A stretch of 64,000 bases of DNA, taken from assembly GCA_045863235.1 (NCBI GenBank), contig BTUM01000002.1, forward strand, positions 160,001-224,000. Direction: 5' to 3'. The notes under the pieces were generated by a model. The model ran no database searches. It was not told where the DNA came from and saw only the letters and a program-made list of their open reading frames with translations. The translations under genes and the position numbers were made by a program. Source of the DNA: Candidatus Xenobia bacterium. GTDB lineage: Bacteria; Vulcanimicrobiota; Xenobia; Xenobiales; QWHO01. Positions 38,626 through 51,300 of the stretch are shown one piece after another (position 1 is the stretch's first letter; every line of letters begins with the position of its first letter).

Positions 38626-39318
38626 ATGCCCAGTCTGCCAGTGCCCATCCCTCGTCCAACACGCCAGTGGCCCTACGCTACGCTTCTCTTCGCTTTGTTG
38701 TTCCTGACCCTGGGAAGAGCCCTGATGCCAGCCGAGCTCGCTTACGACTCGACCCTGCGCCGGGTTGCGCTGATCGTGACCCTGGCTGCTTGCGTCTGGG
38801 CGATCAGTCCCGACCGCCGCCATCTCCTCATGGCTGGTCTGCTCTCCCTGGCCCCCATCTCGGCGCAGTTTTTCCCCAGCAACTGGAGTCAGGGACAACT
38901 CTGGATCAGCGGAGCTTTCTTTCTCTATGTCACGCTCTTGATCTTGAGCAACGTCTTCTCGGCTTCTGAGATCAATGCCGACAAGATCTTTGGGGCAACC
39001 TGCGCCTATCTGCTGGTGGGCCTGGTCTTCGCCCACATCTATCTGCTCATCGAGCTGACGCATCCGGGAACGTTCAAGCTCGACCCACAGATCAAAGACC
39101 CCCTCACGATTTTTGACGACCTGCTCTACTTCAGCATGGTCACCATGACCACGGTGGGTTATGGGGACATCGTCCCTTTGACCCGACCCGCCCGCTCGCT
39201 GGCCACCATGGAAGCTGTCTTCGGCCAGTTTTATATCGCCGTGCTGGTGGGTCGACTTCTGGGCCTGTACATGGAGTTCCACGGCATCACCTCCGGTCGC
39301 TCGGACCGGTCCAACTGA
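38626..39318 (+). CDS. Potassium channel family protein (Ion_trans_2)
   Basis: YFSMVTMTTVGYGDIVP selectivity filter; several TMs. Confidence 0.92.
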   Translation: MPSLPVPIPRPTRQWPYATLLFALLFLTLGRALMPAELAYDSTLRRVALIVTLAACVWAISPDRRHLLMAGLLSLAPISAQFFPSNWSQGQLWISGAFFLYVTLLILSNVFSASEINADKIFGATCAYLLVGLVFAHIYLLIELTHPGTFKLDPQIKDPLTIFDDLLYFSMVTMTTVGYGDIVPLTRPARSLATMEAVFGQFYIAVLVGRLLGLYMEFHGITSGRSDRSN

Positions 39319-39331
39319 AGGGAGCTACAAA

Positions 39332-40855
39332 GTGCGTCACCTCCTGGTCCTCTTCGGCATTCTGGTCTGCGCTGCAGCGGCCCAGAACTTCCACGACCCG
39401 AGGGTCTATCCCGAGTGGCCCACCACGCCCCCGCCCACCATAGCGCCGGGCGCGACGGCGCCCGACCCGGCCCGGATGGAAGGCCTGAAGAAGAGCTTCC
39501 CTTCCTACCAGGGCTGGAGCGTGGTGGTCTTCCCCTTCGCCCGGCTCAAGGCGGCCCGTGGCTATCCTCGCATGCTGCTCTCGCTCGGGCCGGCCGGGTT
39601 CACCCAGGTCGACCCGGTCAACCATCCCGAGCAGGTGGATACCTCTCAGGCCTACATCACCTTCTTCGACCAGGCCGGCCAGGTCTCGCTGGTGGGACAG
39701 GCCCAGGCAGGCAAGCGCATCACCGACCTGCATCCCGGTTGGAACCTGCTGGCGGTGCCCTCCAGCACACCCGTGGCGGTAGAGCACATCACCGTGACCG
39801 CTCCCGGTGGTCTCACCCGCACTCCGGGCGAGGCCGCCAGCGATTCCTGTCAGCCCGGCAACGCCTGGCTCTATGCCCTGGGGCTGGCCCGAGGAGCCGA
39901 AGGTCGGGTCAACATCGACCTTCGCCAGCCCCGCAGCCCGCTGGTGAAGCCCGGCACGGCCGCCCTCATCTACAGCTGGGGCGAGCTCGAGCTCAACTGG
40001 AACCTGGTGCCCCCCGCCACTGTGCCCAGGATCGCAGGCCTGTCCTCCAGCTCGCTGACCCCGGGACAGGTTCTCCAGGTCAAAGGAAGCGGTTTTGGCC
40101 AGCCGGGGCACGGAACGCTGACGCTGGGAGGACTGCCCGTGCCCCCCGACTCGGTGGTGGAGTGGAAGAGCGACCAGATTCGCTTCAAGGTTCCAGAGGG
40201 CGCCCGCAGCGGCAATCTGATGGTCATGGTCGATCGCTATCCCAGCAATCGAGTCGCCGTGACGGTCGCCCCGGGAGCCGGCCAGGCCACCAGCACGCTC
40301 ACCGGACGGGTGGAGAGCTCCGATCGACAGCCTCTTGGCGGCGCCCAGGTCCAGCTCGACAGCGGCTATCAGGCGACCACCTCGGCAGACGGCAGCTTTC
40401 AGGTCCAGGGCCTGCCTCCCGGCCCTCACGACGTCTTTGTCTCCAAAGTAGGCTACCGCTCCGGTAAGGGCAGCGTGCGGATGGCTCCGGGAGAGAGCCG
40501 CAACCTGCTCGTGTCGCTCTCGCCAGCCGGCGGCCAGGCGGTGCGCGCCGAGAAGAAGGCCAACTTCACGGTGCGGGGCTATCCCTACGACCTCGAGGGC
40601 GAGGGCGTGGACGGCCGCCACTACTGGGTCTACAAGATGGAGGTCTGGGAATACGGCACCAATGGCCGCAACTGGTCCCGCACCTGGGATACCGACGTGG
40701 GGAACTCTTACAACGAGCTGACCTGCGACGGGGCGCTGGTGGGCCGCTACTACTGCATGCGACTTTACTGGAAGAGCGGGCGTCGGGACCGGACCGCCCT
40801 GTGGACTCCCCAGTTGGACAATCCCGACCAGGTCTTCTACTACTACCATCCCTGA
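39332..40855 (+). CDS. Secreted protein with IPT/TIG and carboxypeptidase-regulatory-like Ig folds
   Basis: Signal peptide; GWNLL motif; PRI..LS...PGQVLQVKGSGFG (IPT/TIG); LTGRV...PLGGAQV...DGSF...LPPG. Confidence 0.75.
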   Translation: MRHLLVLFGILVCAAAAQNFHDPRVYPEWPTTPPPTIAPGATAPDPARMEGLKKSFPSYQGWSVVVFPFARLKAARGYPRMLLSLGPAGFTQVDPVNHPEQVDTSQAYITFFDQAGQVSLVGQAQAGKRITDLHPGWNLLAVPSSTPVAVEHITVTAPGGLTRTPGEAASDSCQPGNAWLYALGLARGAEGRVNIDLRQPRSPLVKPGTAALIYSWGELELNWNLVPPATVPRIAGLSSSSLTPGQVLQVKGSGFGQPGHGTLTLGGLPVPPDSVVEWKSDQIRFKVPEGARSGNLMVMVDRYPSNRVAVTVAPGAGQATSTLTGRVESSDRQPLGGAQVQLDSGYQATTSADGSFQVQGLPPGPHDVFVSKVGYRSGKGSVRMAPGESRNLLVSLSPAGGQAVRAEKKANFTVRGYPYDLEGEGVDGRHYWVYKMEVWEYGTNGRNWSRTWDTDVGNSYNELTCDGALVGRYYCMRLYWKSGRRDRTALWTPQLDNPDQVFYYYHP

Positions 40856-40906: not shown

Positions 40907-42034
40907 ATGTCCCGACGCCCCCTTCTTTCGGTGATCCTGGGAACCCTGGCCCTCTTCGGATTGAGCTTTGCCTTCTGTTGGATGCAGATGGCCAGCCTTT
41001 CCGAACGCCTGGTCCAGGAGCAAGAGACCGACCAGTTGAACATCCTGCGCTCCATTCTCGAGGAGAGCCGCTGGCGGGCCCTGGCTCAGGCCGAGTTCGT
41101 GGCCTCCATTCCGGAGGTCCAGAAGGCTGTCAGAGAACGCGATCGGGGTGCCCTGATCCGGCTGGTGGGCCCCATCATCGACACCCAGCGCCGCAAGTAC
41201 GGAGTCTCGGCGGCCAGCTTCTTCACCCGCGACAACACCGCACTGCTGCGCCTGGAGGCACCCGAGACCTTCGGCGATTCGGTGGCCGGCTACGCCCGCC
41301 GGGTGGTCGAGACCAACCGTTCCGGCGAGCCTCGGGCCGGGCCAGGCATCGATCGCCAGGGAGCAGAGATCTTCGGGGATGCCCCGGTGATGTCGGATGG
41401 CAAGCTTTACGGAACGTTCGAGCTGGGGATCTCGTGCTCGGAGCTGGTCAACCGACTGCACACCAGCTACGGCCTGGAGGCCGGCGTTCTCTTCGACCGC
41501 CAGTTGCTCGAGCAGGTGGCCACCCTGGAACGCTGGGACAGCTCGGCGGAGAACCTGGCCGGTCCCTACCTGCGCGTCTCGGCCACCGACTGGCCCTTGC
41601 TCCGCGATCTGCTCTCGCAGTGGCAGGGCGACTTTCTGCGCGAGCCCCAGACCTTCTCGGCCACCAGCCAGGGTCAAGAGTGCATCGTGACCGTGCTGCC
41701 CCTGGTGGACGGGGCAGGCGTGGCCATCGGCCAGCTCGTGGGCGTCAAGAAGCTTCCGCCTTTTCGGGTCCAGACCCGCAACGCCGCCATTCTGGCCGCC
41801 TCAGCCTGTCTGCTGGCCTTTGTTCTCAACTGCCTGCTGCTTCAGGTCGTTCTTCGGGGCATGCTCCTCTGGCCGGCGCGAGTGGTCGCAGAGCGGCTCC
41901 AGAACCTGGCCGATGGGGCTGATGCGCCCCCGGCCGGGGATCTGCGCCGCGATGCCCCGGCCCTGACCGAGCTCTACGCCGCCTATGAGAACATTCGCGA
42001 ACGCTGGCCCCGGCGGGAGAAACCCGAGCCGTGA
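40907..42034 (+). CDS. Membrane Cache (dCache_3-like) sensor with HAMP-like tail and no output domain
   Basis: TM, then DRGAL...LLRLEAPETFGD...GTFELG Cache pattern, second TM and about 55 aa HAMP-like end. Confidence 0.75.
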   Translation: MSRRPLLSVILGTLALFGLSFAFCWMQMASLSERLVQEQETDQLNILRSILEESRWRALAQAEFVASIPEVQKAVRERDRGALIRLVGPIIDTQRRKYGVSAASFFTRDNTALLRLEAPETFGDSVAGYARRVVETNRSGEPRAGPGIDRQGAEIFGDAPVMSDGKLYGTFELGISCSELVNRLHTSYGLEAGVLFDRQLLEQVATLERWDSSAENLAGPYLRVSATDWPLLRDLLSQWQGDFLREPQTFSATSQGQECIVTVLPLVDGAGVAIGQLVGVKKLPPFRVQTRNAAILAASACLLAFVLNCLLLQVVLRGMLLWPARVVAERLQNLADGADAPPAGDLRRDAPALTELYAAYENIRERWPRREKPEP

Positions 42035-43095
42035 GGGGATGGCTGCTCCTGGCATTCTTCGCGGCAATGCTCTGCGGTAAGGTCCCAGCCGAGCAGTTGC
42101 TCGACTTCCCACCCGACGTTCCGGTCCCGATTCCGGTTTCGGTGGGCGTGCGCCTGATCAAGCTGGAGGAGATCCGCGAATCCGAAGGGACCTTCTCGGC
42201 AACCCTGGATGTGCGCCTGGCCTGGACCGACCCCCGGTTGAGTACGGGAAGGAGAGGCCCTCGGCAGCTTGGCTCGCGGGCGGCCCGCGCCTCTCTGGAG
42301 GCTATCTGGGACCCGGGCGTCCAGATGCAAAACGAGCGAAGTGAGCAGTCCGACAGCGTGGTGGACGAGGCCCTGTGGATCTCCGAGAAGGGGGAAGTGG
42401 AGTGGATCCGCCGCATTCGCGGCAGCTTCGAGGCCGATTTTGACACCCGCAACTTCCCCTTTGACCGGCAGGACCTCTCGCTGAGCTTCCTGGGAGCTGA
42501 GTATGATCGCAACCAGATCACATTGGTGGCTGATGAGGCAGCCCAACAGTTTGCTCAAGGTCGTCTTCCCGAGATCTCAGGCTGGGAAATGCGTCGTGGA
42601 GCAGTGACTTCCTCGCTCGAATCCCACTGGAACGGCAACACCCACTCCCGAATCGCTTACGAATTCAGTGTGCGCCGCGACCCCTGGCGATACGTTGCGC
42701 CCATCTTCACACCCGTGCTGGCCACCTTGCTGGTTCCGGTCATCGCCATCTGGCTCAATCGCTGGGGCGAGAACACCCTCCAGATCGAGGCCTACGAGTT
42801 CATGAATCTGGCCGTGGGCGGGTTGTTCGCCACCATCGCCCTGACCCTGGCGGTCTATTCGTCGTATCCCTTCCTGTCCAGCGGACGCAACGTGGTGGGC
42901 TACCTCTTCACTCTCAATTACTTGCTTCTAGCGGTCGCCGGCCTGGTGATCCTGTTCCTCTTCCGGTCCCAGCGCGAGGAGATCCCCCGGTTCAGTCCGG
43001 GGGTAGCCTACGAGCTCTACCAGGGCGTGTGCTGGGCCATTCCGACGGCGGCGGTGATTGCGGCCGGAGCCATCTTCTTCACTGCTCTCCCCTGA
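42031..43095 (+). CDS. Pentameric ligand-gated ion channel (Pro-loop/Cys-loop superfamily) subunit
   Basis: Signal peptide, WTDPRL, IWDP (loop A), NFPFDRQ (Pro-loop), GW, pre-M1 VRR and four hydrophobic helices; 354 aa. Confidence 0.88.
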   Translation: MRGWLLLAFFAAMLCGKVPAEQLLDFPPDVPVPIPVSVGVRLIKLEEIRESEGTFSATLDVRLAWTDPRLSTGRRGPRQLGSRAARASLEAIWDPGVQMQNERSEQSDSVVDEALWISEKGEVEWIRRIRGSFEADFDTRNFPFDRQDLSLSFLGAEYDRNQITLVADEAAQQFAQGRLPEISGWEMRRGAVTSSLESHWNGNTHSRIAYEFSVRRDPWRYVAPIFTPVLATLLVPVIAIWLNRWGENTLQIEAYEFMNLAVGGLFATIALTLAVYSSYPFLSSGRNVVGYLFTLNYLLLAVAGLVILFLFRSQREEIPRFSPGVAYELYQGVCWAIPTAAVIAAGAIFFTALP

Positions 43096-43103
43096 AGCGA
43101 GCC

Positions 43104-44195
43104 TCAATGCGAATGGTCGTCCTTGAACCTGCTCGCGATCTCGCGAAACTCGTCAGCGCAGGCTACGAAAGCATCCACCAGGTCCGGATCGAAGTGCTTG
43201 CCGCGCCCCTCGCAGATGATCTCCACCGCCTTCTCATGCGAAAAGGCAGGCTTGTAGCAACGCTTGGAGATCAGGGCGTCATACACGTCGGCGATGGCCA
43301 TGATGCGCCCTGGGAGGGGGATCGCGTCCCCCTGCACTCCATCCGGATACCCGGTGCCATCCCATTTCTCGTGGTGCGAATAGGCGATCTCTCGGGCCAG
43401 TTGCAGGAAAGAGCTGGTGGAGCCGAGCATCTGCTCGGCCCGCAGCAGGGCGTCGCGGCCCAGAGTGGGGTGCTTCTTCATCTCAGCGAACTCTTCGTCG
43501 GTCAGCTTGTCGGGCTTGAGCAGAATCCGGTCGGCCACTCCCACCTTGCCGATGTCATGCAGCGGAGCTGATTTGGTCATCAGGTCGACGGTGCGCTCAT
43601 CAAACTGCTCGTAGCCCGGCTGGGTGCTGAGGTAGCGGGCCAGGGCCCCCACGTACATCTGAGTGCGCCGGATGTGCCCCCCGGTCTCGTTGTCCCGGGT
43701 TTCGGCCAGCGAGGCCAGGCTCTGGATCGTCACGTCCTGGGTGAGCTTGAGCTCGGCCGTCCGCTCGGCCACCAGCCGCTCCAGAATCTCGTTCTGGTTC
43801 TTCATGTAGTCGCGGGCCAGCTTCAGCTCCAGGTGGTTCTTGACCCGGGCTTTGACGATCGGCGGTGAGATCGGTTTGGTGATGTAGTCCACCGCGCCCA
43901 ACTCCAGGCCCCTGGTCTCGTCTTGCACCTCGCCCATGGCGGTGACGAAAATCACCGGAATGTCGTGCGTTTTCTCGTCCGCCTTGAGACGTCGACAGAC
44001 CTCGTAGCCGTCCATTCCGGGCATCATGATATCCAGCAGAATCAAGTCCGGCGCCGGGGTGTCAGCCACCCGCTGCAGGGCCTGATCGCCGTTCTTGGCC
44101 ACGGCCAATTTGAACTCGGCTTTGAAGAGCTCGACAAGAACGTTGAGATTGAGAGGCTCGTCGTCCACGATGAGCAGCTTGGAGTTCTGGGTCAA
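43104..44195 (-). CDS. REC-HD-GYP response regulator (RpfG-like c-di-GMP phosphodiesterase)
   Basis: IVDD, LLDIMMP, HDIGK, HHEKWDGTGYP and ADVYDAL. Confidence 0.95.
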   Translation of the reverse strand: MTQNSKLLIVDDEPLNLNVLVELFKAEFKLAVAKNGDQALQRVADTPAPDLILLDIMMPGMDGYEVCRRLKADEKTHDIPVIFVTAMGEVQDETRGLELGAVDYITKPISPPIVKARVKNHLELKLARDYMKNQNEILERLVAERTAELKLTQDVTIQSLASLAETRDNETGGHIRRTQMYVGALARYLSTQPGYEQFDERTVDLMTKSAPLHDIGKVGVADRILLKPDKLTDEEFAEMKKHPTLGRDALLRAEQMLGSTSSFLQLAREIAYSHHEKWDGTGYPDGVQGDAIPLPGRIMAIADVYDALISKRCYKPAFSHEKAVEIICEGRGKHFDPDLVDAFVACADEFREIASRFKDDHSH

Positions 44196-47100
44196 GGTCC
44201 TACCTCCACACCGAGTTTCAATTTGCGGGCGATGTCTTCCAGCGTCCGGGCGGCTTCGTCAAAGTCCAAGTCGTCCACCTGCCGATGGAGCAAGGCCACC
44301 TCGGCGCCGCCGACGCCGGACAGAAAAGGCTGAAGCTCCTCCAGGCGAGGGCCGGCGCCCGGGTCGCCCTGACGCAACAGCTTGAGCAGAGCCTCAACCT
44401 TCTCGGTCGGATCTCCGGGGAGGCCGGCGGGCCGGGCCTCCGGGCCGGGCTGCAGGGCGCCCAGAGCCGGCAGAACGGCAGCCAGACCGGACTCCACCGC
44501 CTGCACGAGAGCCGACTCCACCTGAGAAGCGCGAGCCGCCTTCTCCAACTCGCGAGCGGCCTTCTCGACCCCGCCGATGCCCAGGTTCGCCGACACGCCC
44601 GCCAGCGAGTGGGCCTGCTGGGAGATCGACTCGAAGTCTTGCTTCTCCAGGCTGGCGCGTAACCTCTCTCCGGCCTGCGAGAAGCGCGAGCGATAGTCCC
44701 CGAGCAGCTTGCGATAGAGCTTGAGATTGCCGCCCAGACGGGCCAGACCGCTACTGGTGTCCACCCCGGGCAGGGGCGGTAACCCTTCCGACGCGCTGGT
44801 CAACCAGCGGGCCAGGGCCGCCCTCAGGGCCCGAGGATCGATGGGCTTGGCCAGGTGGTCGTTCATCCCGGCCTCCAGGCAACGCTCCCGGTCGCCGACC
44901 ATGGCGTGGGCGGTCATGGCGACGATGGGCAAGCCGGTCAGCGAGCTGTCCGAGCGGATGCGCCGGGTCGCCTCCCAGCCGTCCATCACCGGCATCTGAA
45001 GGTCCATCAGGACGAGGTCGAACCCCTCGCGGGCCAGAGCGTCCAGCACCTCCTGGCCGTTGGCGGCGATGCTGACCCGCATGCCCATCTGCTGCAACAT
45101 TTCACCGGCCACTTGCTGGTTGATCTCGTCATCCTCAGCCAGCAAGATGTGCGCCGCTCGAAGCTTCACCGGCTCTTCGGATGCGCTCGAGGCGGCTGCT
45201 CGCGCCTCCCCCCCGATGACCCGGGCAATGGCCTCGAACAAGAGCGTGGGAGTCACCGGCTTGAGCACGAAGCCGTCCAGGTTCTCCAGGCCGGCCTTGC
45301 CGTCACGCATCTCGTCGCGGCCGTAGTTGGTGACCATCAGAATATAGGGTCGGCGTGTCCCGGAGAACCGTTTGTGGATCTCTCGCGAGGTTTCCAGGCC
45401 GCTCATGCCCGACATCCGCCAGTCCATCAAGACCACCTCGTAGCGGCTCTGCTCGAGCAAGGAGAGAGCCTCGCCTCCCGAGCCCGCGGTGGCCACCTCA
45501 AAGGCCATCGAGGCCAGCATCTCGGCCAGGATCTTGCGGGCGGTGGGTCGATCGTCCACCACCAGCACCCGGGTCCCCTTGAGATCGAGCTGCACGCTCG
45601 GGCCGCCGGTCGGCTTGCGGTCCTGAAGGCGGCAGCGGATGGTAAAGCTGAACGTGCTTCCCTGGCCGGGCCGACTGCTCACCTCGATGTTTCCCCCCAT
45701 CATCTCGACGAGCCGTTTGCAGATGATCAGGCCCAGACCCCCTCCTCGGGTGTGGGCCTCGGTAAAGGGTTGAAAGAGCTGCTCGAGCTGCTTCTGGGTC
45801 ATGCCCTGGCCCGTATCCTGGACGGTGAAGCGCAAAGTGGCTGAATCCTGGTCGCGCTCGAGCAGGCTGCTGCGCACCACGATGTCTCCGTTCTGGGTAA
45901 ACTTGACCGCGTTGGAGACCAGGTTGGTCAGCACTTGAGCCAGCCGCAAAGGAGCTCCGATGAGGTGCTCGGGCACGTCGGCCTCGCGCAGGAAAAACAT
46001 CTCCAGGCCCTTCTCCGCGGCCTTGACCGTGAACAGACCGAGCACGTCGTCGAGCACTGTGCTCAGGTTGAAGTCCACCTGCTCGAGCTTGCGCTCGCCC
46101 GCATCCAGCTTGGAGAAATCCAGCACGTCGTTGATGGTTCCCAGGTCGCTCATGATGCCCAGCAGCGATTGAGCCGAGCCCTGGATCTTCATCAGGTAGT
46201 CGCGCTGGTTGGCGGTCAGCTCGGTCTGCAGAGCCAGGTGACAAAGGCCGATCACGGCATTCATGGGTGTTCGAATCTCGTGGCTCATCCGGGCCAGGAA
46301 CTCGGACTTGGCCAGGTTGGCGGCATCGGCTTCCAACCGGGCGCTGAGCAGCTTGTTCTCCATGGCCTTTCGCTCGGTGATCTCGGTAGCAAACGAGCTG
46401 ACGGCATAGGGCTGACCCTGGGCATCGAGCAGGGGCACCTCGCTGACCAGGTAGGTCCGGGTGACGCCCTCCGGGGTCACCTGCTGCTCCTCGAACTGCA
46501 GCGGCTGGCGCGACTCGAGCACCTGGCGATCGCGCTCACGCCTCTCGGCGGCTAGCTCGGGGGAAAACAGCTCCTGATCGGTCTGGCCCACCACTTGCTC
46601 GAGCGTGCGGCCCACCCGGGTGGCGAAGGTCCTGTTGACCATCAGGTAACGCCCTGTCGGGTCCTTGAGATAGATGGGGTCGGTGGCGTTGTCGATGATG
46701 GCCTGCAGGCGCCGCTCGCTCTCTTCGATCACCTCGCGCGCCAGCTTCTGCTCGGTAATGTCGAGCAGGATGCCATCGAGCCACTCGGGGGTGCCGTCCG
46801 GCCGACAGATCGCCTGACCGGTGTCCTCCACCCAGAGCGAGCGCCCATCGCGATGCTGAAAACGGTATTGAGTCTTCCAGGGGCGCCCGGCCAGCACGGC
46901 TTCGTCCACGGCCGCCCGGGCCTGCTCCAGGTCGGCGGGCACGATCAAGCTGTCCAGCCGACGCCGGTCCCCTTCCAGGAACTCGCCGGCAGGATAACCG
47001 CACAGCTCCTCGATCCGGTCGCTGACGAACTCGACGCGTCGCTGCGCGTCGGCCTGGCAGCGATAGACGGCTCCAGGCAGATTCGCGACCAGCACGTTGA

Positions 47101-48238
47101 AGCGCTGGCTCTCCAGGTCTTGAATCTGCTCCTCGCGGTCGAGCAGCACCTCGCTCATGGTGTGAAAGGAGTAGAACAGGTCACCCAGCTCGTCTTCCCG
47201 GGTGGGAGGAAGCTCCTGGAGCGGCTGACCCTTGGCAAAAAGGTCCATCTGATCGCGCAGCTTGAGAACCGGTGAGGTGATCCAACCCATCACCAACCAC
47301 ATGGCCACGGCTGCGCCCAGCAGCGTGAGGAGCTCGGTGGCGGCCCGCCGGCCCAGCTGGCGCGTCTCGCTGGCCAGCAGCGACGACTCGGAAACCTGCC
47401 AGCCCAGGCTCCAACCAGTCCGCTGGAGGGGCACATAGACCGCCACGGCCGGACCCTGCGTCCCCTGCACCACCACCGTACCGGGCCCCTCGTGACGGGT
47501 CAGCTTCAAGGCATAGCTCAGCTGGTCATCCTGACGACTGCGCCGGGCCTGCTCGAGCAGGTTGGCATTGCCTGCCCCCCCCACCACGAACCTGCCGGTG
47601 CTGGTGACGATCATCGGGCTCTTGCCGCCCGCTCGCAGATCGGCCAGGCTCTTGAGCGTGGAAAGTGCGATGTCCACGGTGACCACGCCGGCGAACTGGT
47701 CTCCGCGGTAGAACGGCGCCGAGAAGGTGGTGACGAAGACTCCCTGGCCGCCAGGAGCGGTGGAAGGCTCCGACCAGTGGGGCCTGCGATCACGGCTGGT
47801 GACACGATACCACTCATAACGCTCTTCGGTGTAATCGAGTCGGCCAGCCAGATCGGTGCGCACCATCCGGTCGCCCTGCCGCATGACGCTGGGGCAAAAA
47901 AGCTGCCGGTCCGAGCCCGGCGCGAAGGCCACCGTGGCGCCGAACAGGGCCGGATTTCCCTCCAGCGTCGACTCGAGCAGGGCATAGATGCGCTCGGGAG
48001 ACTCCCTGCTCTCGCGGGCCAGGCCGCTTGCCAGCACGCCCACGGCCCGCTCGGCGCTCTCAAAGAACGCATCCAGACGGCTGGCCTCGAAGACCGCCTC
48101 GGACTCGACCTCGCGCCGCTTGAGGTCACGAACATCGTGGTGGAGGTTGAGCAGGTCGCGGGCCAGCGATACCAGCGTGATGGCCACGATGGGGATCAGC
48201 ACCAGCAACGTGTATTTGACTCGGATGGAACGAAACAC
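44192..48238 (-). CDS. Hybrid sensor histidine kinase (Cache-HAMP-2xPAS-HisKA-HATPase-2xREC-HPt)
   Basis: [21 protein letters not shown], two REC domains and AHSLAG HPt; GTG start at 48238 inferred. Confidence 0.92.
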   Translation of the reverse strand: MFRSIRVKYTLLVLIPIVAITLVSLARDLLNLHHDVRDLKRREVESEAVFEASRLDAFFESAERAVGVLASGLARESRESPERIYALLESTLEGNPALFGATVAFAPGSDRQLFCPSVMRQGDRMVRTDLAGRLDYTEERYEWYRVTSRDRRPHWSEPSTAPGGQGVFVTTFSAPFYRGDQFAGVVTVDIALSTLKSLADLRAGGKSPMIVTSTGRFVVGGAGNANLLEQARRSRQDDQLSYALKLTRHEGPGTVVVQGTQGPAVAVYVPLQRTGWSLGWQVSESSLLASETRQLGRRAATELLTLLGAAVAMWLVMGWITSPVLKLRDQMDLFAKGQPLQELPPTREDELGDLFYSFHTMSEVLLDREEQIQDLESQRFNVLVANLPGAVYRCQADAQRRVEFVSDRIEELCGYPAGEFLEGDRRRLDSLIVPADLEQARAAVDEAVLAGRPWKTQYRFQHRDGRSLWVEDTGQAICRPDGTPEWLDGILLDITEQKLAREVIEESERRLQAIIDNATDPIYLKDPTGRYLMVNRTFATRVGRTLEQVVGQTDQELFSPELAAERRERDRQVLESRQPLQFEEQQVTPEGVTRTYLVSEVPLLDAQGQPYAVSSFATEITERKAMENKLLSARLEADAANLAKSEFLARMSHEIRTPMNAVIGLCHLALQTELTANQRDYLMKIQGSAQSLLGIMSDLGTINDVLDFSKLDAGERKLEQVDFNLSTVLDDVLGLFTVKAAEKGLEMFFLREADVPEHLIGAPLRLAQVLTNLVSNAVKFTQNGDIVVRSSLLERDQDSATLRFTVQDTGQGMTQKQLEQLFQPFTEAHTRGGGLGLIICKRLVEMMGGNIEVSSRPGQGSTFSFTIRCRLQDRKPTGGPSVQLDLKGTRVLVVDDRPTARKILAEMLASMAFEVATAGSGGEALSLLEQSRYEVVLMDWRMSGMSGLETSREIHKRFSGTRRPYILMVTNYGRDEMRDGKAGLENLDGFVLKPVTPTLLFEAIARVIGGEARAAASSASEEPVKLRAAHILLAEDDEINQQVAGEMLQQMGMRVSIAANGQEVLDALAREGFDLVLMDLQMPVMDGWEATRRIRSDSSLTGLPIVAMTAHAMVGDRERCLEAGMNDHLAKPIDPRALRAALARWLTSASEGLPPLPGVDTSSGLARLGGNLKLYRKLLGDYRSRFSQAGERLRASLEKQDFESISQQAHSLAGVSANLGIGGVEKAARELEKAARASQVESALVQAVESGLAAVLPALGALQPGPEARPAGLPGDPTEKVEALLKLLRQGDPGAGPRLEELQPFLSGVGGAEVALLHRQVDDLDFDEAARTLEDIARKLKLGVEVGP

Positions 48239-48393
48239 GAGCTCTCCGTCTTGCCGGGCACGGCCCCGGCGACGAAGTGTAGTTGCACATCGGCTCGAAC
48301 GTCCCTGTTTGAGACAACCCTTCACTTCTCTAACCGGACAAAAGATGCCCCGCCCACAGAAGATTCCCAACCGGGCTGGACGAAGGGACCGCC

Positions 48394-51300
48394 ATGACGA
48401 TCGCCCGCCGCCTGACCCTGCAAGCAATCCTCCCCCTGTTACTGCTCGCGGGTCTGGGGTTTCTGGTGCGCAGCAAGCTGGCCCAGATCGAGGAGAGAAC
48501 AAGATTCCTGGCTCTTCAAGCGGAGAGTCTGAGGGCGGTGGCGGGAATCTCGGCGGCAAACTTCAGCATGCGCATCTCGATGCGCAACATGCTCCTGGGT
48601 CGAAACCCTGAAGAGCGGTCCGAGGCCCGAGCCGATTTTGAGGCAGCCTCGCTCCGATCCCAGCAGCTCCTGAGCGACTATGAAGCCAGGATGATCAGCA
48701 GCGAGGCCGATGGGAGGATGCTTTCGAGTTTTCGTGCCGGCCAGCAAGAGTGGGAAGTCACGGCTCGCAGCTTCCTTTCGAAGGCCGAGGCCGACCCCGA
48801 GGGAACTCTTCGTGTGCTCCCCCCCCAGCGGGTGCTCCAGCAGTCTGGGCTGGCCGTGAGCCGGTCGCTGGAGGCCTGGATCAAGCTCAATGAAGAGCTG
48901 GCCGCGGGGGCGGAGCAGGATGCTCTGCGGGCAATTCAGAGCGCACGACGAGACATCAGCCTGGCCCTGCTGCTGTCCCTGATGCTGTCTGCCTGGCTGA
49001 GCTTCTGGACCTACCGGAGGATCGTCCACCCCATCAGGACGCTGCGCAACTCGGTTGAGACCATCGCGGCCGGAGACTATACTCAGGTCGTCCCGCTGGC
49101 CAGAGTCCCGGGCGAGATCGGCAAGCTCTCCCGGGCGATCCAGGTGCTCAAGCAGGGAGCCGCGGCGGCCGACGAGATGCGCTGGGTTGAAAGCAATGCC
49201 TCCAACCTTTCGGCCGGGTTAAAAGGGGCTGCCACTTTGCAGGAGTTCGGGCAGCGATTGCTCTCGGGCCTGGTGCCCGTGCTCGGGGGCGGGGTGGCCG
49301 GATTGTTCCATCTCGATGAGAACGATGGAATTCTGCGCCGCATAGCCGGGTACGGCCTGGCCGAGGACGAGGGGGCCGGCCTGGCGTTCCGACCGGGGGA
49401 AGGACTGGTAGGCGAGTGTGCGCGGGAACGAGCGCCTATCACGCTGAGCGGCCTGCCGGCTGACTATCTGCGCATCTCGTCCGGGGTGGGCCAGGCTCCT
49501 CCGGCCCAGGTTTCGGTGTGGCCGGTCCTGTCCCGGGATGCGGTGCTGGGCGTGCTCGAGCTGGCCAGTCTCCGGCCCCTGACTCCGCTCCAGAAGGAGC
49601 TGCTGGACGCGTTGCTGCCCGACGTGGGCATGAGCCTGGAGATCCTGCAGCGCAACCTTCACACGCAGGAGCTGCTGGGGGAAACCCGTGAGCAGGCCCG
49701 CGAGCTGGAGGAGCGCGCCATCGAGCTGACCCGCTCGCAGCGCGAGCTGCTGACTCAGAGAGAGAAGCTGGTGGCCCAGGGTCAGGAGCTGGCCCAGGCC
49801 AAACAGGCCGCCGAAGCTGCCACAGCCATGAAATCGATGTTCCTGGCCAACATGAGCCATGAGATCAGGACCCCGATGAACGCCATCATCGGTCTGTCGC
49901 ACCTGGCCCTCAAAACCCCGCTCAACCCCAAGCAGAAAGACTACGTCAGCAAGATCCACAATGCCGGCACATCGCTCCTGGGCATCATCAACGACATCCT
50001 GGACGTGTCCAAGATCGAAGCCGGCAAGCTCGATCTCGAGACCACCGACTTTCTCCTCGACGAAGTCATCAGCTCGGTCACCACCCTGACCGCCCAGAAA
50101 GCCCACGAGAAGGGGCTGGAGTTCTTGTTCGACGTCTCCCGCTCGATCCCCGAGGAGCTTCGAGGCGACCCGCTCCGGCTCGGTCAGGTGCTCACCAACC
50201 TGGTCAACAATGCCATCAAGTTCACCGAGAAAGGCGAGATCCGCGTCAAAATCGAGCTGGGCGAGCGCACCGGGGACAAGGTGCAGATCAAGTGCCTGAT
50301 CCGCGATACCGGGATTGGCATGTCTAAAGAGCAAGCGGCCAGGCTCTTCCAGCCCTTCACCCAGGCCGACATGTCCACCACCCGCAAGCATGGGGGCACC
50401 GGCCTGGGGCTGACCATCGCCCGCCGACTGGTGGAGATGATGGGCGGCCAGATCTGGCTCGAGAGCGAGCCCGGGGTGGGCACCACCTTCCACTTCACCG
50501 TCTGGCTGGGAGTTGGCTCGGAGAAACGCTCCGGGAGGGTGGTGCCGGCCAGCCTGCCCAGCCTGCGGGCCCTGGTGGTGGACGACAACCCTTCGGCCCG
50601 GGAGATTCTGCAGGACCTGCTGACCTCGGTCACCGGTCAGGTCGACCTGGTGGGCTCGGGAATCGAAGCGCTGGAAGCCATTCAGCGTCACGACGCCGAC
50701 CAGCCCTACGACATCGTCTTCATGGACTGGCGCATGCCCGGGATGGACGGTCTCACGGCCAGTCGCCAGATTCGCAGCCTGGAATCACTCAAGCGCCAGC
50801 CGGCCATCGTGATGGTGACCGCCTTCGGCCGTGACGAAGTGCGCGAGGAGGCCGAGCGGGTGGGCCTGGATGGCTTCCTGGTCAAGCCGGTCACCAAGTC
50901 GATGATCGTGGACACGCTGGTGAGCGTGTTTGCCGAGCCAGGCGAGGTGCAGGCCCACGAGTTGGCAGAGAGCAGGCTCCTGAACGGAGTCCGCATTCTG
51001 CTGGCGGAAGACAACGAGATCAACCAGCAGATCGCCGTCGAGCTGCTGGAAGGCTCGGGAGCCGTCGTGCGAGTGGCCAACAACGGTCAGGAGGCGGTGG
51101 ACGCAGTCTTTGGCGAGCCTCAGCCTCCCCCGTTCGACGTGGTGCTGATGGACCTTCAGATGCCCGTGCTCGACGGCTACCAGGCTACCGCCAGGATCCG
51201 CTCCGATGCACGCTTTGCCGAGCTTCCCATCCTGGCCATGACCGCTCACGCCACCATCGAGGAACGCCAGAAGTGCCTCGAGTCGGGCATGAACGACCAC

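Follow-up and report, generated by a model that had tools for sequence, protein, structure and literature searches.

An output-less dCache_3-HAMP receptor gene paired with a bacterial pentameric ligand-gated ion channel gene

In the window, a 64,000-nucleotide stretch of a “Candidatus Xenobia” genome, two overlapping genes on the forward strand encode a membrane receptor without an output domain (ORF1) and a subunit belonging to the pentameric ligand-gated ion channels, or pLGICs (ORF2). Judged by sequence comparison, the subfamily of ORF1 is co-inherited with the pLGIC clade of the window, and a dedicated partnership between receptor and channel is well supported. Ligand sensing by ORF1 is less sure, because the Q/H/H/R set of its distal Cache pocket has been replaced while loop C of the channel is conserved. 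Our preferred reading, held tentatively at a probability of roughly 45%, is that ORF1 acts as an auxiliary subunit in the membrane: it would bind a periplasmic ligand and pass the signal to the channel, modulating its opening. We are less inclined to the more far-reaching proposal that a widespread dCache_3-HAMP subfamily traded away its enzymatic output to serve a bacterial pLGIC clade as ligand-sensing subunit, giving a two-protein ionotropic receptor whose nicotinic-type pore is gated sideways, inside the membrane, by a TM2/HAMP movement of the two-component style.

ORF1 (positions 40907..42034, + strand; 375 aa, ATG start) reads as TM1, dCache_3, TM2, and a degenerate HAMP, as assigned from Pfam, AF2, hydropathy, and a family profile. 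TM1 (aa 6-24; 40922..40978) was placed by hydropathy, and TM2 (aa ~294-322; 41786..41872) by the AF2 model, hydropathy, and an alignment in which G318 is kept across the output-less group. The intervening dCache_3 domain (aa 36-278; 41012..41740), identified by Pfam and Foldseek, is predicted to be periplasmic; it scored E 7e-23 (81.9 bits against a cut-off of 25.7) and was the only Pfam match of ORF1 at E<=0.1. In the AF2 model (pLDDT 94.3), a double Cache fold between the two TM helices drew Foldseek matches to DctB, McpH, and Tlp3, its distal module was CitA-like (target-normalised TM of 0.81 to CitA 1p0z by Foldseek), and the C-terminal part formed a helix-loop-helix. This last part, the sole predicted cytoplasmic portion, is the degenerate HAMP (aa 323-366; 41873..42004). 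Pfam HAMP found no match on ORF1 of the window itself, in which the HAMP motif ‘DEIG’ has become ‘DAPA’, and matched 15 of 47 short relatives at E<=0.01. The best PDB match of the ORF1 family profile was nonetheless the HAMP of Af1503 (E 7.5e-7, profile 321-370), so that, despite the Pfam miss, we read the tail as a degenerate HAMP with nothing beyond it. ORF1 stops 9 residues past the last helix, and the cytoplasmic output domain that follows HAMP in two-component, MCP, and cyclase proteins is absent. An earlier note on this DNA had described a TM-Cache-TM-HAMP-like ORF lacking output, and the Pfam dCache_3 domain, the two hydrophobic segments, and the degenerate HAMP followed by the end of the protein bear this out; of the profiles it had proposed, dCache_3 matched ORF1 and Neur_chan_LBD matched ORF2, and that for HAMP missed ORF1.

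On the evidence of the similarity ranking and the tree, ORF1 belongs to a dedicated output-less dCache_3-HAMP subfamily and is not a stray truncation. A profile search over 1.84 billion representatives returned 43 matches at E<=1e-30, 41 of them no longer than 413 aa; the two long ones were a tandem copy and a 4HB-plus-Cache protein, both without output. The earlier note had allowed that relatives might carry a C-terminal output domain, yet none was seen in the 40 of these top 43 that were scanned with Pfam (the other three being 310-338 aa), and no MCP appeared before rank 57. A tree built from the periplasmic part only (141 rows, after omission of 14 fragments and of 2 rows closely related to paired ones; quick search, no mixture model) contained a branch with SH-aLRT 95 that set all 48 long forms and 5 short ones apart from 88 output-less rows. 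That ORF1 represents a kinase or chemoreceptor gene cut short or in decay, placed before the channel by chance, is highly improbable. Long dCache_3 relatives do bear MCP, kinase, or GAF modules (26 of the 31 scanned, and the 26 that were Pfam-scanned among the 48 long forms in the tree), and both HAMP and pocket are degenerate, as such decay would predict. A whole output-less subfamily emerging from an unselected ranking and from the tree argues otherwise, as do a dN/dS of 0.10 against L005 (one pair), which indicates purifying selection, an end point 38-96 residues past the HAMP proline (in 53 rows selected by length), and an overlap with the channel gene that is still kept at ~32% identity.

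Members of the subfamily vary in their sensor parts. P0029 is a tandem duplication of the whole TM-Cache-TM-HAMP unit, and in P0056 and P0075 one or two 4HB sensor modules precede it, all still without output. Among ESM Atlas clusters that match in size and domain, which we treat as leads only, the commonest phylum was Pseudomonadota, Myxococcota, or Cyanobacteriota. The source genome has many HAMP receptors, and no output-bearing member of the ORF1 subfamily was found in it. A plasmid search with two channel proteins gave no match, and one with the Cache protein P0031 gave three records, the two inspected being receptors of 655-665 aa, one of which was read as an MCP; viral contigs gave no match.

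ORF2 (42031..43095, + strand; 354 aa, GTG start, signal-peptide-like N terminus) is a Cys-less (Pro-loop) pLGIC subunit according to Pfam, alignment with GLIC, AF2, and Foldseek. It matched Pfam Neur_chan_LBD at E 3e-20, and GLIC was its closest solved relative by sequence (E 3e-18; profile E 2e-26). The AF2 model (pLDDT 75.7) showed the extracellular beta-sandwich domain and, after it, the four TM helices expected of a pLGIC, and Foldseek matched it to GABA-A, glycine, sTeLIC, and GLIC structures at E ~1e-18, with TM 0.72/0.81 to GLIC. The hallmarks WTDPRL, WDP, FPFDRQ, and pre-M1 R216 were all found. The earlier note's call of a four-TM pLGIC therefore agrees with motifs, Pfam domain, GLIC match, and fold, the last resting on both the GLIC alignment and Foldseek. 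The seven most conserved pLGIC residues, including the [F/Y]PxD Pro-loop, as given in Table 1 of PMC4795631, are all present in ORF2 (F142, P143, D145, W185, R216, P228, and P280). Within the Pro-loop motif F142-P143-F144-D145 (42454..42465; GLIC alignment and homologues), F142, P143, and D145 are invariant among 14 ORF2 homologues, in keeping with [F/Y]PxD, and W185 (beta9), R216 (pre-M1), P228 (M1), and P280 (M2-M3) match GLIC positions and are invariant in 35 rows. By a prime numbering of M2 that we take to apply to ORF2, position 0' is occupied by F257 and not by a basic residue; since GLIC itself has Asn there in the same alignment, this does not bar ORF2 from the family. A basic residue at 0' is common, not universal, and occurs in 79% of the family.

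The extracellular domain of the channel (aa 33-218; 42127..42684), delimited by Pfam, alignment, and hydropathy, carries a loop C of the form W200-N-G-x-x-H205, of which W200, N, G, and H205 are invariant in 14 homologues. Because loop C, with a conservation of 0.67, is among the best conserved parts of the channel, ORF2 may bind an agonist or other ligand of its own there. The four-helix TM domain (42685..43086; GLIC alignment, AF2, and hydropathy) has a longer M1-M2 loop with E253/E256, F266 in M2, and P280 in the M2-M3 stretch, and both the lengthened cytoplasmic M1-M2 loop and the M3-M4 segment are conserved in the channel clade of the window. Residues E253/E256 at the M2 entrance hint weakly at cation selectivity, although PMC4795631 warns that this site is no predictor of selectivity in prokaryotes. 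Like its partner, ORF2 appears to be under purifying selection (dN/dS 0.125, one pair). Since it is the sole pLGIC in the source genome (97.6% complete), the channel is likely a homopentamer.

The stop of ORF1 and the start of ORF2 share the 4 nt GTGA at 42031..42034 (+ strand), the overlap that the earlier note had reported, and the arrangement suggests translational coupling of the two genes. Four-nucleotide overlaps alone are common among bacteria, so the weight lies on the persistence of this one in five lineages. Scans with the channel alignment gave three genome loci and five metagenome loci, and a search for relatives added one more distant locus; once near-identical copies were collapsed, these formed six lineages, in one of which (L011) the contig begins at the channel and has no upstream DNA. 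In all five lineages with upstream DNA (the window group, L005, L006, L010, and L015), a Cache gene precedes the channel, answering the earlier note's question of whether the pair is conserved elsewhere. ORF1 identity across these five is 90-100, 90, 50, 47, and 32%, and in every one of them the Cache gene terminates after HAMP, with the same 4-nt overlap onto the start of the channel gene. Because the flanking genes change in L006/L054, only the pair itself is kept, and no third conserved gene was found beside it among the loci compared.

Surveys of the phylum in both directions lead to the same genomes. A pLGIC was present in 29 of 401 phylum genomes and the window's clade in five, all with the Cache gene upstream. 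Beside the other 25 pLGIC loci (24 genomes), which are distant from the window's channel clade, no Cache-family match was found within 1.5-kb flanks, nor in the three loci that were re-read across 11-12 kb; this control partly rests on two unpublished genomes (G245 and G328) of the 24. In the reverse search with the Cache family, in which no more than four candidates were scored for each genome, 10 of 401 genomes had a match; full-length short forms were confined to the five genomes with the window's channel clade, the remaining matches being frames of 491-2039 aa and one broken copy. The second pLGIC set (L016-L040, in 24 phylum genomes) mostly has an ‘EFKTKDQL’ M1-M2 motif and is without a Cache partner. 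As to labels, L005 is listed under Burkholderiales, probably a mislabel (its proteins are 57-91% identical to those of the window and in the same order), and two related loci are listed under Eremiobacterota/Vulcanimicrobiota.

Outside the phylum, pairing rests on equal-sized contigs and on a fusion. The fusion protein P0109 (790 aa) joins TM-dCache_3-TM-HAMP to a full pLGIC, falls inside the output-less tree group, and, on a family HMM from which it had been left out, reached 369 bits where no long form exceeded 268; its linker helix lies below the hydropathy threshold. As one protein on one contig whose nearest channel relatives are unfused, P0109 could possibly be an assembly read-through. 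An identical contig size was found for 6 of 22 channel records when compared with 66 Cache records, where 0.15 were expected; one such match (L005) was confirmed on DNA, and another pairs Cache P0064 with channel P0207, which are ~22% identical to the proteins of the window. P0070 and P0109 share a longest contig size of 5862, and the free Cache P0070 is 32.5% identical to the fused Cache; a free Cache paralogue seems to lie on the fusion contig as well, which, if true, would let one fused and one free sensor pair.

Receptor and channel have diverged together. Over ten pairs (five on DNA, three or four by equal-sized contigs, and one fusion), pairwise identities of sensor and channel were correlated (rho 0.90; Mantel p 0.0003), and sensor and channel trees of ten rows each agreed in topology. 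Such co-divergence, read from sequence identities, shows long co-inheritance and not contact, since linkage alone yields it.

The distal pocket of the Cache domain is remodelled relative to output-bearing proteins. Five residues that are 96-100% conserved in 48 long forms (Q102, H106, H117, E147, and R156, window numbering) are A, F, E, G, and F in ORF1, and these positions vary even among its close relatives. We place them in the pocket by the CitA alignment and by CitA pocket residues that we take to map onto these positions of ORF1. Distal-module identity was 0.33 among output-less rows versus 0.54 among long forms, the latter value being inflated, since that module had served to retrieve the long forms. 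We found no ligand for dCache_3 in the portions of the literature on this domain that were available. Loss of the Q/H/H/E/R set with retention of structural glycines and prolines, subfamily-enriched residues that lie mostly outside the pocket (Q94, D197, A205-T206, G219, D228-W229, and G318), and the conserved loop C of the channel would all suit a non-sensing auxiliary or assembly subunit with a decayed pocket, one that folds, traffics, or stabilises the channel or sets its resting state while the channel's own site binds the agonist. We think this unlikely: R115, D124, and E172 near the pocket are retained, the sensor modules added in P0056 and P0075 (4HB) and P0029 (tandem), again without output, are what would be expected if sensing matters, and new ligand specificities would look like pocket diversification too. 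The auxiliary ligand-sensing subunit envisaged in the earlier note is thereby upheld as regards a dedicated partnership, but its sensing half is weakened by a distal pocket without the long-form residues and by the conserved loop C of the channel.

Under the preferred reading, that of an auxiliary subunit acting on the channel, ORF1 would be a homodimer, as HAMP domains act as dimers (PMC3585426, in the part available). Its Cache pocket would bind a small molecule in the periplasm, and the resulting change would be passed sideways, in the direction from sensor to channel, via TM2 and HAMP. ORF1 and channel would be in physical contact, with the long M1-M2 loop and the M3-M4 segment of the channel possibly meeting HAMP, and the outcome would be a modulation of channel opening. 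A TM-sensor-TM-HAMP protein without an effector must act on another protein, and the channel is the candidate target because it is the sole conserved candidate and because the P0109 fusion points to proximity. Besides the remodelled pocket and the conserved loop C, what counts against this reading is the symmetry mismatch between a dimeric sensor and a five-fold channel, the single contig behind the fusion, and the fact that the neighboring gene is known for a minority of ~80 other subfamily members. A complex prediction with two channel subunits (aa 26-354) and ORF1 (aa 1-340) scored 0.07 against a mark of 0.32 with controls that did not fold, and so counts neither for nor against contact. 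Cover from four RNA-labelled runs was flat, at a depth of mostly 2-10 both within and between genes, as DNA carry-over would give, and a scan for promoters and terminators returned 0 promoter-like sites and 4 terminator-like ones versus 2.6 expected.

ORF1 and the channel might also serve one task without touching, with ORF1 buffering or concentrating ligand at the membrane or signalling via a kinase or MCP partner, and with the operon providing only co-regulation. ‘Preliminary concentration or sensing’ by such partners was proposed by Tasneem et al. (PMC549065, as far as its text was available), the retained HAMP suits docking to a cytoplasmic partner, and HAMP receptors are many in this genome. 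We are doubtful of this alternative in view of the physical proximity to which the P0109 fusion points, the lack of a third gene conserved beside the pair, and the failure to find an output-bearing subfamily member in the genome.

The two-gene unit is real and conserved across the loci compared, and it belongs to a kind predicted in 2005. In the available text of that study, Tasneem et al. (PMC549065) described for Rhodopseudomonas a predicted operon in which a Cache gene that stands alone accompanies an ART-LGIC (pLGIC), and for which cooperation was proposed, as well as MCP-N/Cache-fused pLGICs. Compared by published description, both cases have a separate Cache gene and a pLGIC gene in one operon, a proposed cooperation, and parallel fused forms; the 2005 pair was predicted in one genome, its membrane topology going unstated in the available text, whereas the partner here is a two-TM dCache_3-HAMP protein with its own subfamily that co-diverges with the channel. 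Chemotaxis, as proposed in 2005, fits poorly here, and flagellar chemotaxis was rejected as an output: no flagellin was found in the 97.6% complete genome, in which one MCP exceeded the cut-off. New here are the dedicated subfamily of dCache_3-HAMP receptors, the way it co-diverges with the channel, the fused form, and the remodelled pocket. No experimental test of a Cache-pLGIC pair was found in the literature, in a search that surfaced only the 2005 study and whose coverage mostly excluded subscription journals; according to the available part of PMC4795631, association of pLGICs with other domains had previously been seen only at the genome level.

Known systems resemble parts of the pair. 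Like GLIC (and ELIC, sTeLIC, and DeCLIC), ORF2 is a Cys-less Pro-loop channel with all seven superfamily residues; unlike GLIC, it has ~9 extra M1-M2 residues, Phe at the position of the M2 Ile gate of GLIC, the W-N-G-x-x-H loop C, and a dedicated partner gene. Few natural openers of bacterial pLGICs are known. The accessible text of PMC12664993, which describes a fused N-terminal domain in DeCLIC, makes no mention of a separately encoded membrane partner for GLIC, ELIC, sTeLIC, or DeCLIC. Should ORF1 be a ligand-sensing subunit of the channel, it would be the first membrane subunit of a prokaryotic pLGIC known to have a gene of its own. The Af1503 family of archaeal receptors, described in the available part of PMC4834066 as output-less HAMP receptors near membrane transport genes, shares with ORF1 the TM-sensor-TM-HAMP layout without an effector and with HAMP as the sole cytosolic part; ORF1 differs in being bacterial, in its dCache_3 sensor, and in having a channel gene in place of the short STAC gene and MgtE transporter, the overlapping downstream gene being the channel and not a STAC. 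Output-bearing dCache_3 receptors (MCPs, kinases, and cyclases; PMC4822843, as far as available) have the same Pfam domain and TM-Cache-TM-HAMP layout, whereas ORF1 lacks the output, has a remodelled distal pocket, and sits on a separate tree branch. Table 1 of Upadhyay et al. 2016 (PMC4822843), in the part available, gives no ion-channel association for dCache_3, its ion-channel column holding alpha2-delta domains only.

If ORF1 does gate or modulate the channel, the auxiliary subunits of nicotinic and GABA-A-type receptors would gain a simple model in this pair, which would also parallel the alpha2-delta subunit of calcium channels, itself a Cache protein, and might yield a modular biosensor. 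A practical corollary is that a channel of this clade expressed without ORF1 may stay silent or misbehave.

Several neighbors of the pair were considered and set aside. Upstream lie a two-TM-pore-type potassium channel gene (38626-39318, +; Pfam Ion_trans_2 E 1e-13; two genome paralogues), co-directional with the pair here and in L005 and absent beside it in L006, and, 51 bp before ORF1, a gene (39332-40855, +) for a secreted-looking 507-aa protein with IPT/TIG and CarboxypepD_reg (dN/dS 0.09; two genome paralogues), likewise not beside the pair in L006. As both are absent beside the pair in L006/L054, they were rejected as core parts. Downstream, genes for a receiver-HD-GYP-type protein and a Cache-HAMP-PAS hybrid kinase (43104-48559, -) converge on the 3' end of the channel gene, 8 bp away; they are absent beside the pair in L006, and a link to them was rejected on their absence there and in L054. 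A second copy of the locus (L050, positions 1501-1964; G001:C109), 82-86% identical, occurs in a genome that also has an intact pair. It has lost ~1.76 kb, including most of the Cache and channel genes, and continues into ~0.9 kb of different DNA; a related organism within the bin may be the source of this contig, and the copy suggests that Cache and channel genes can be lost together.
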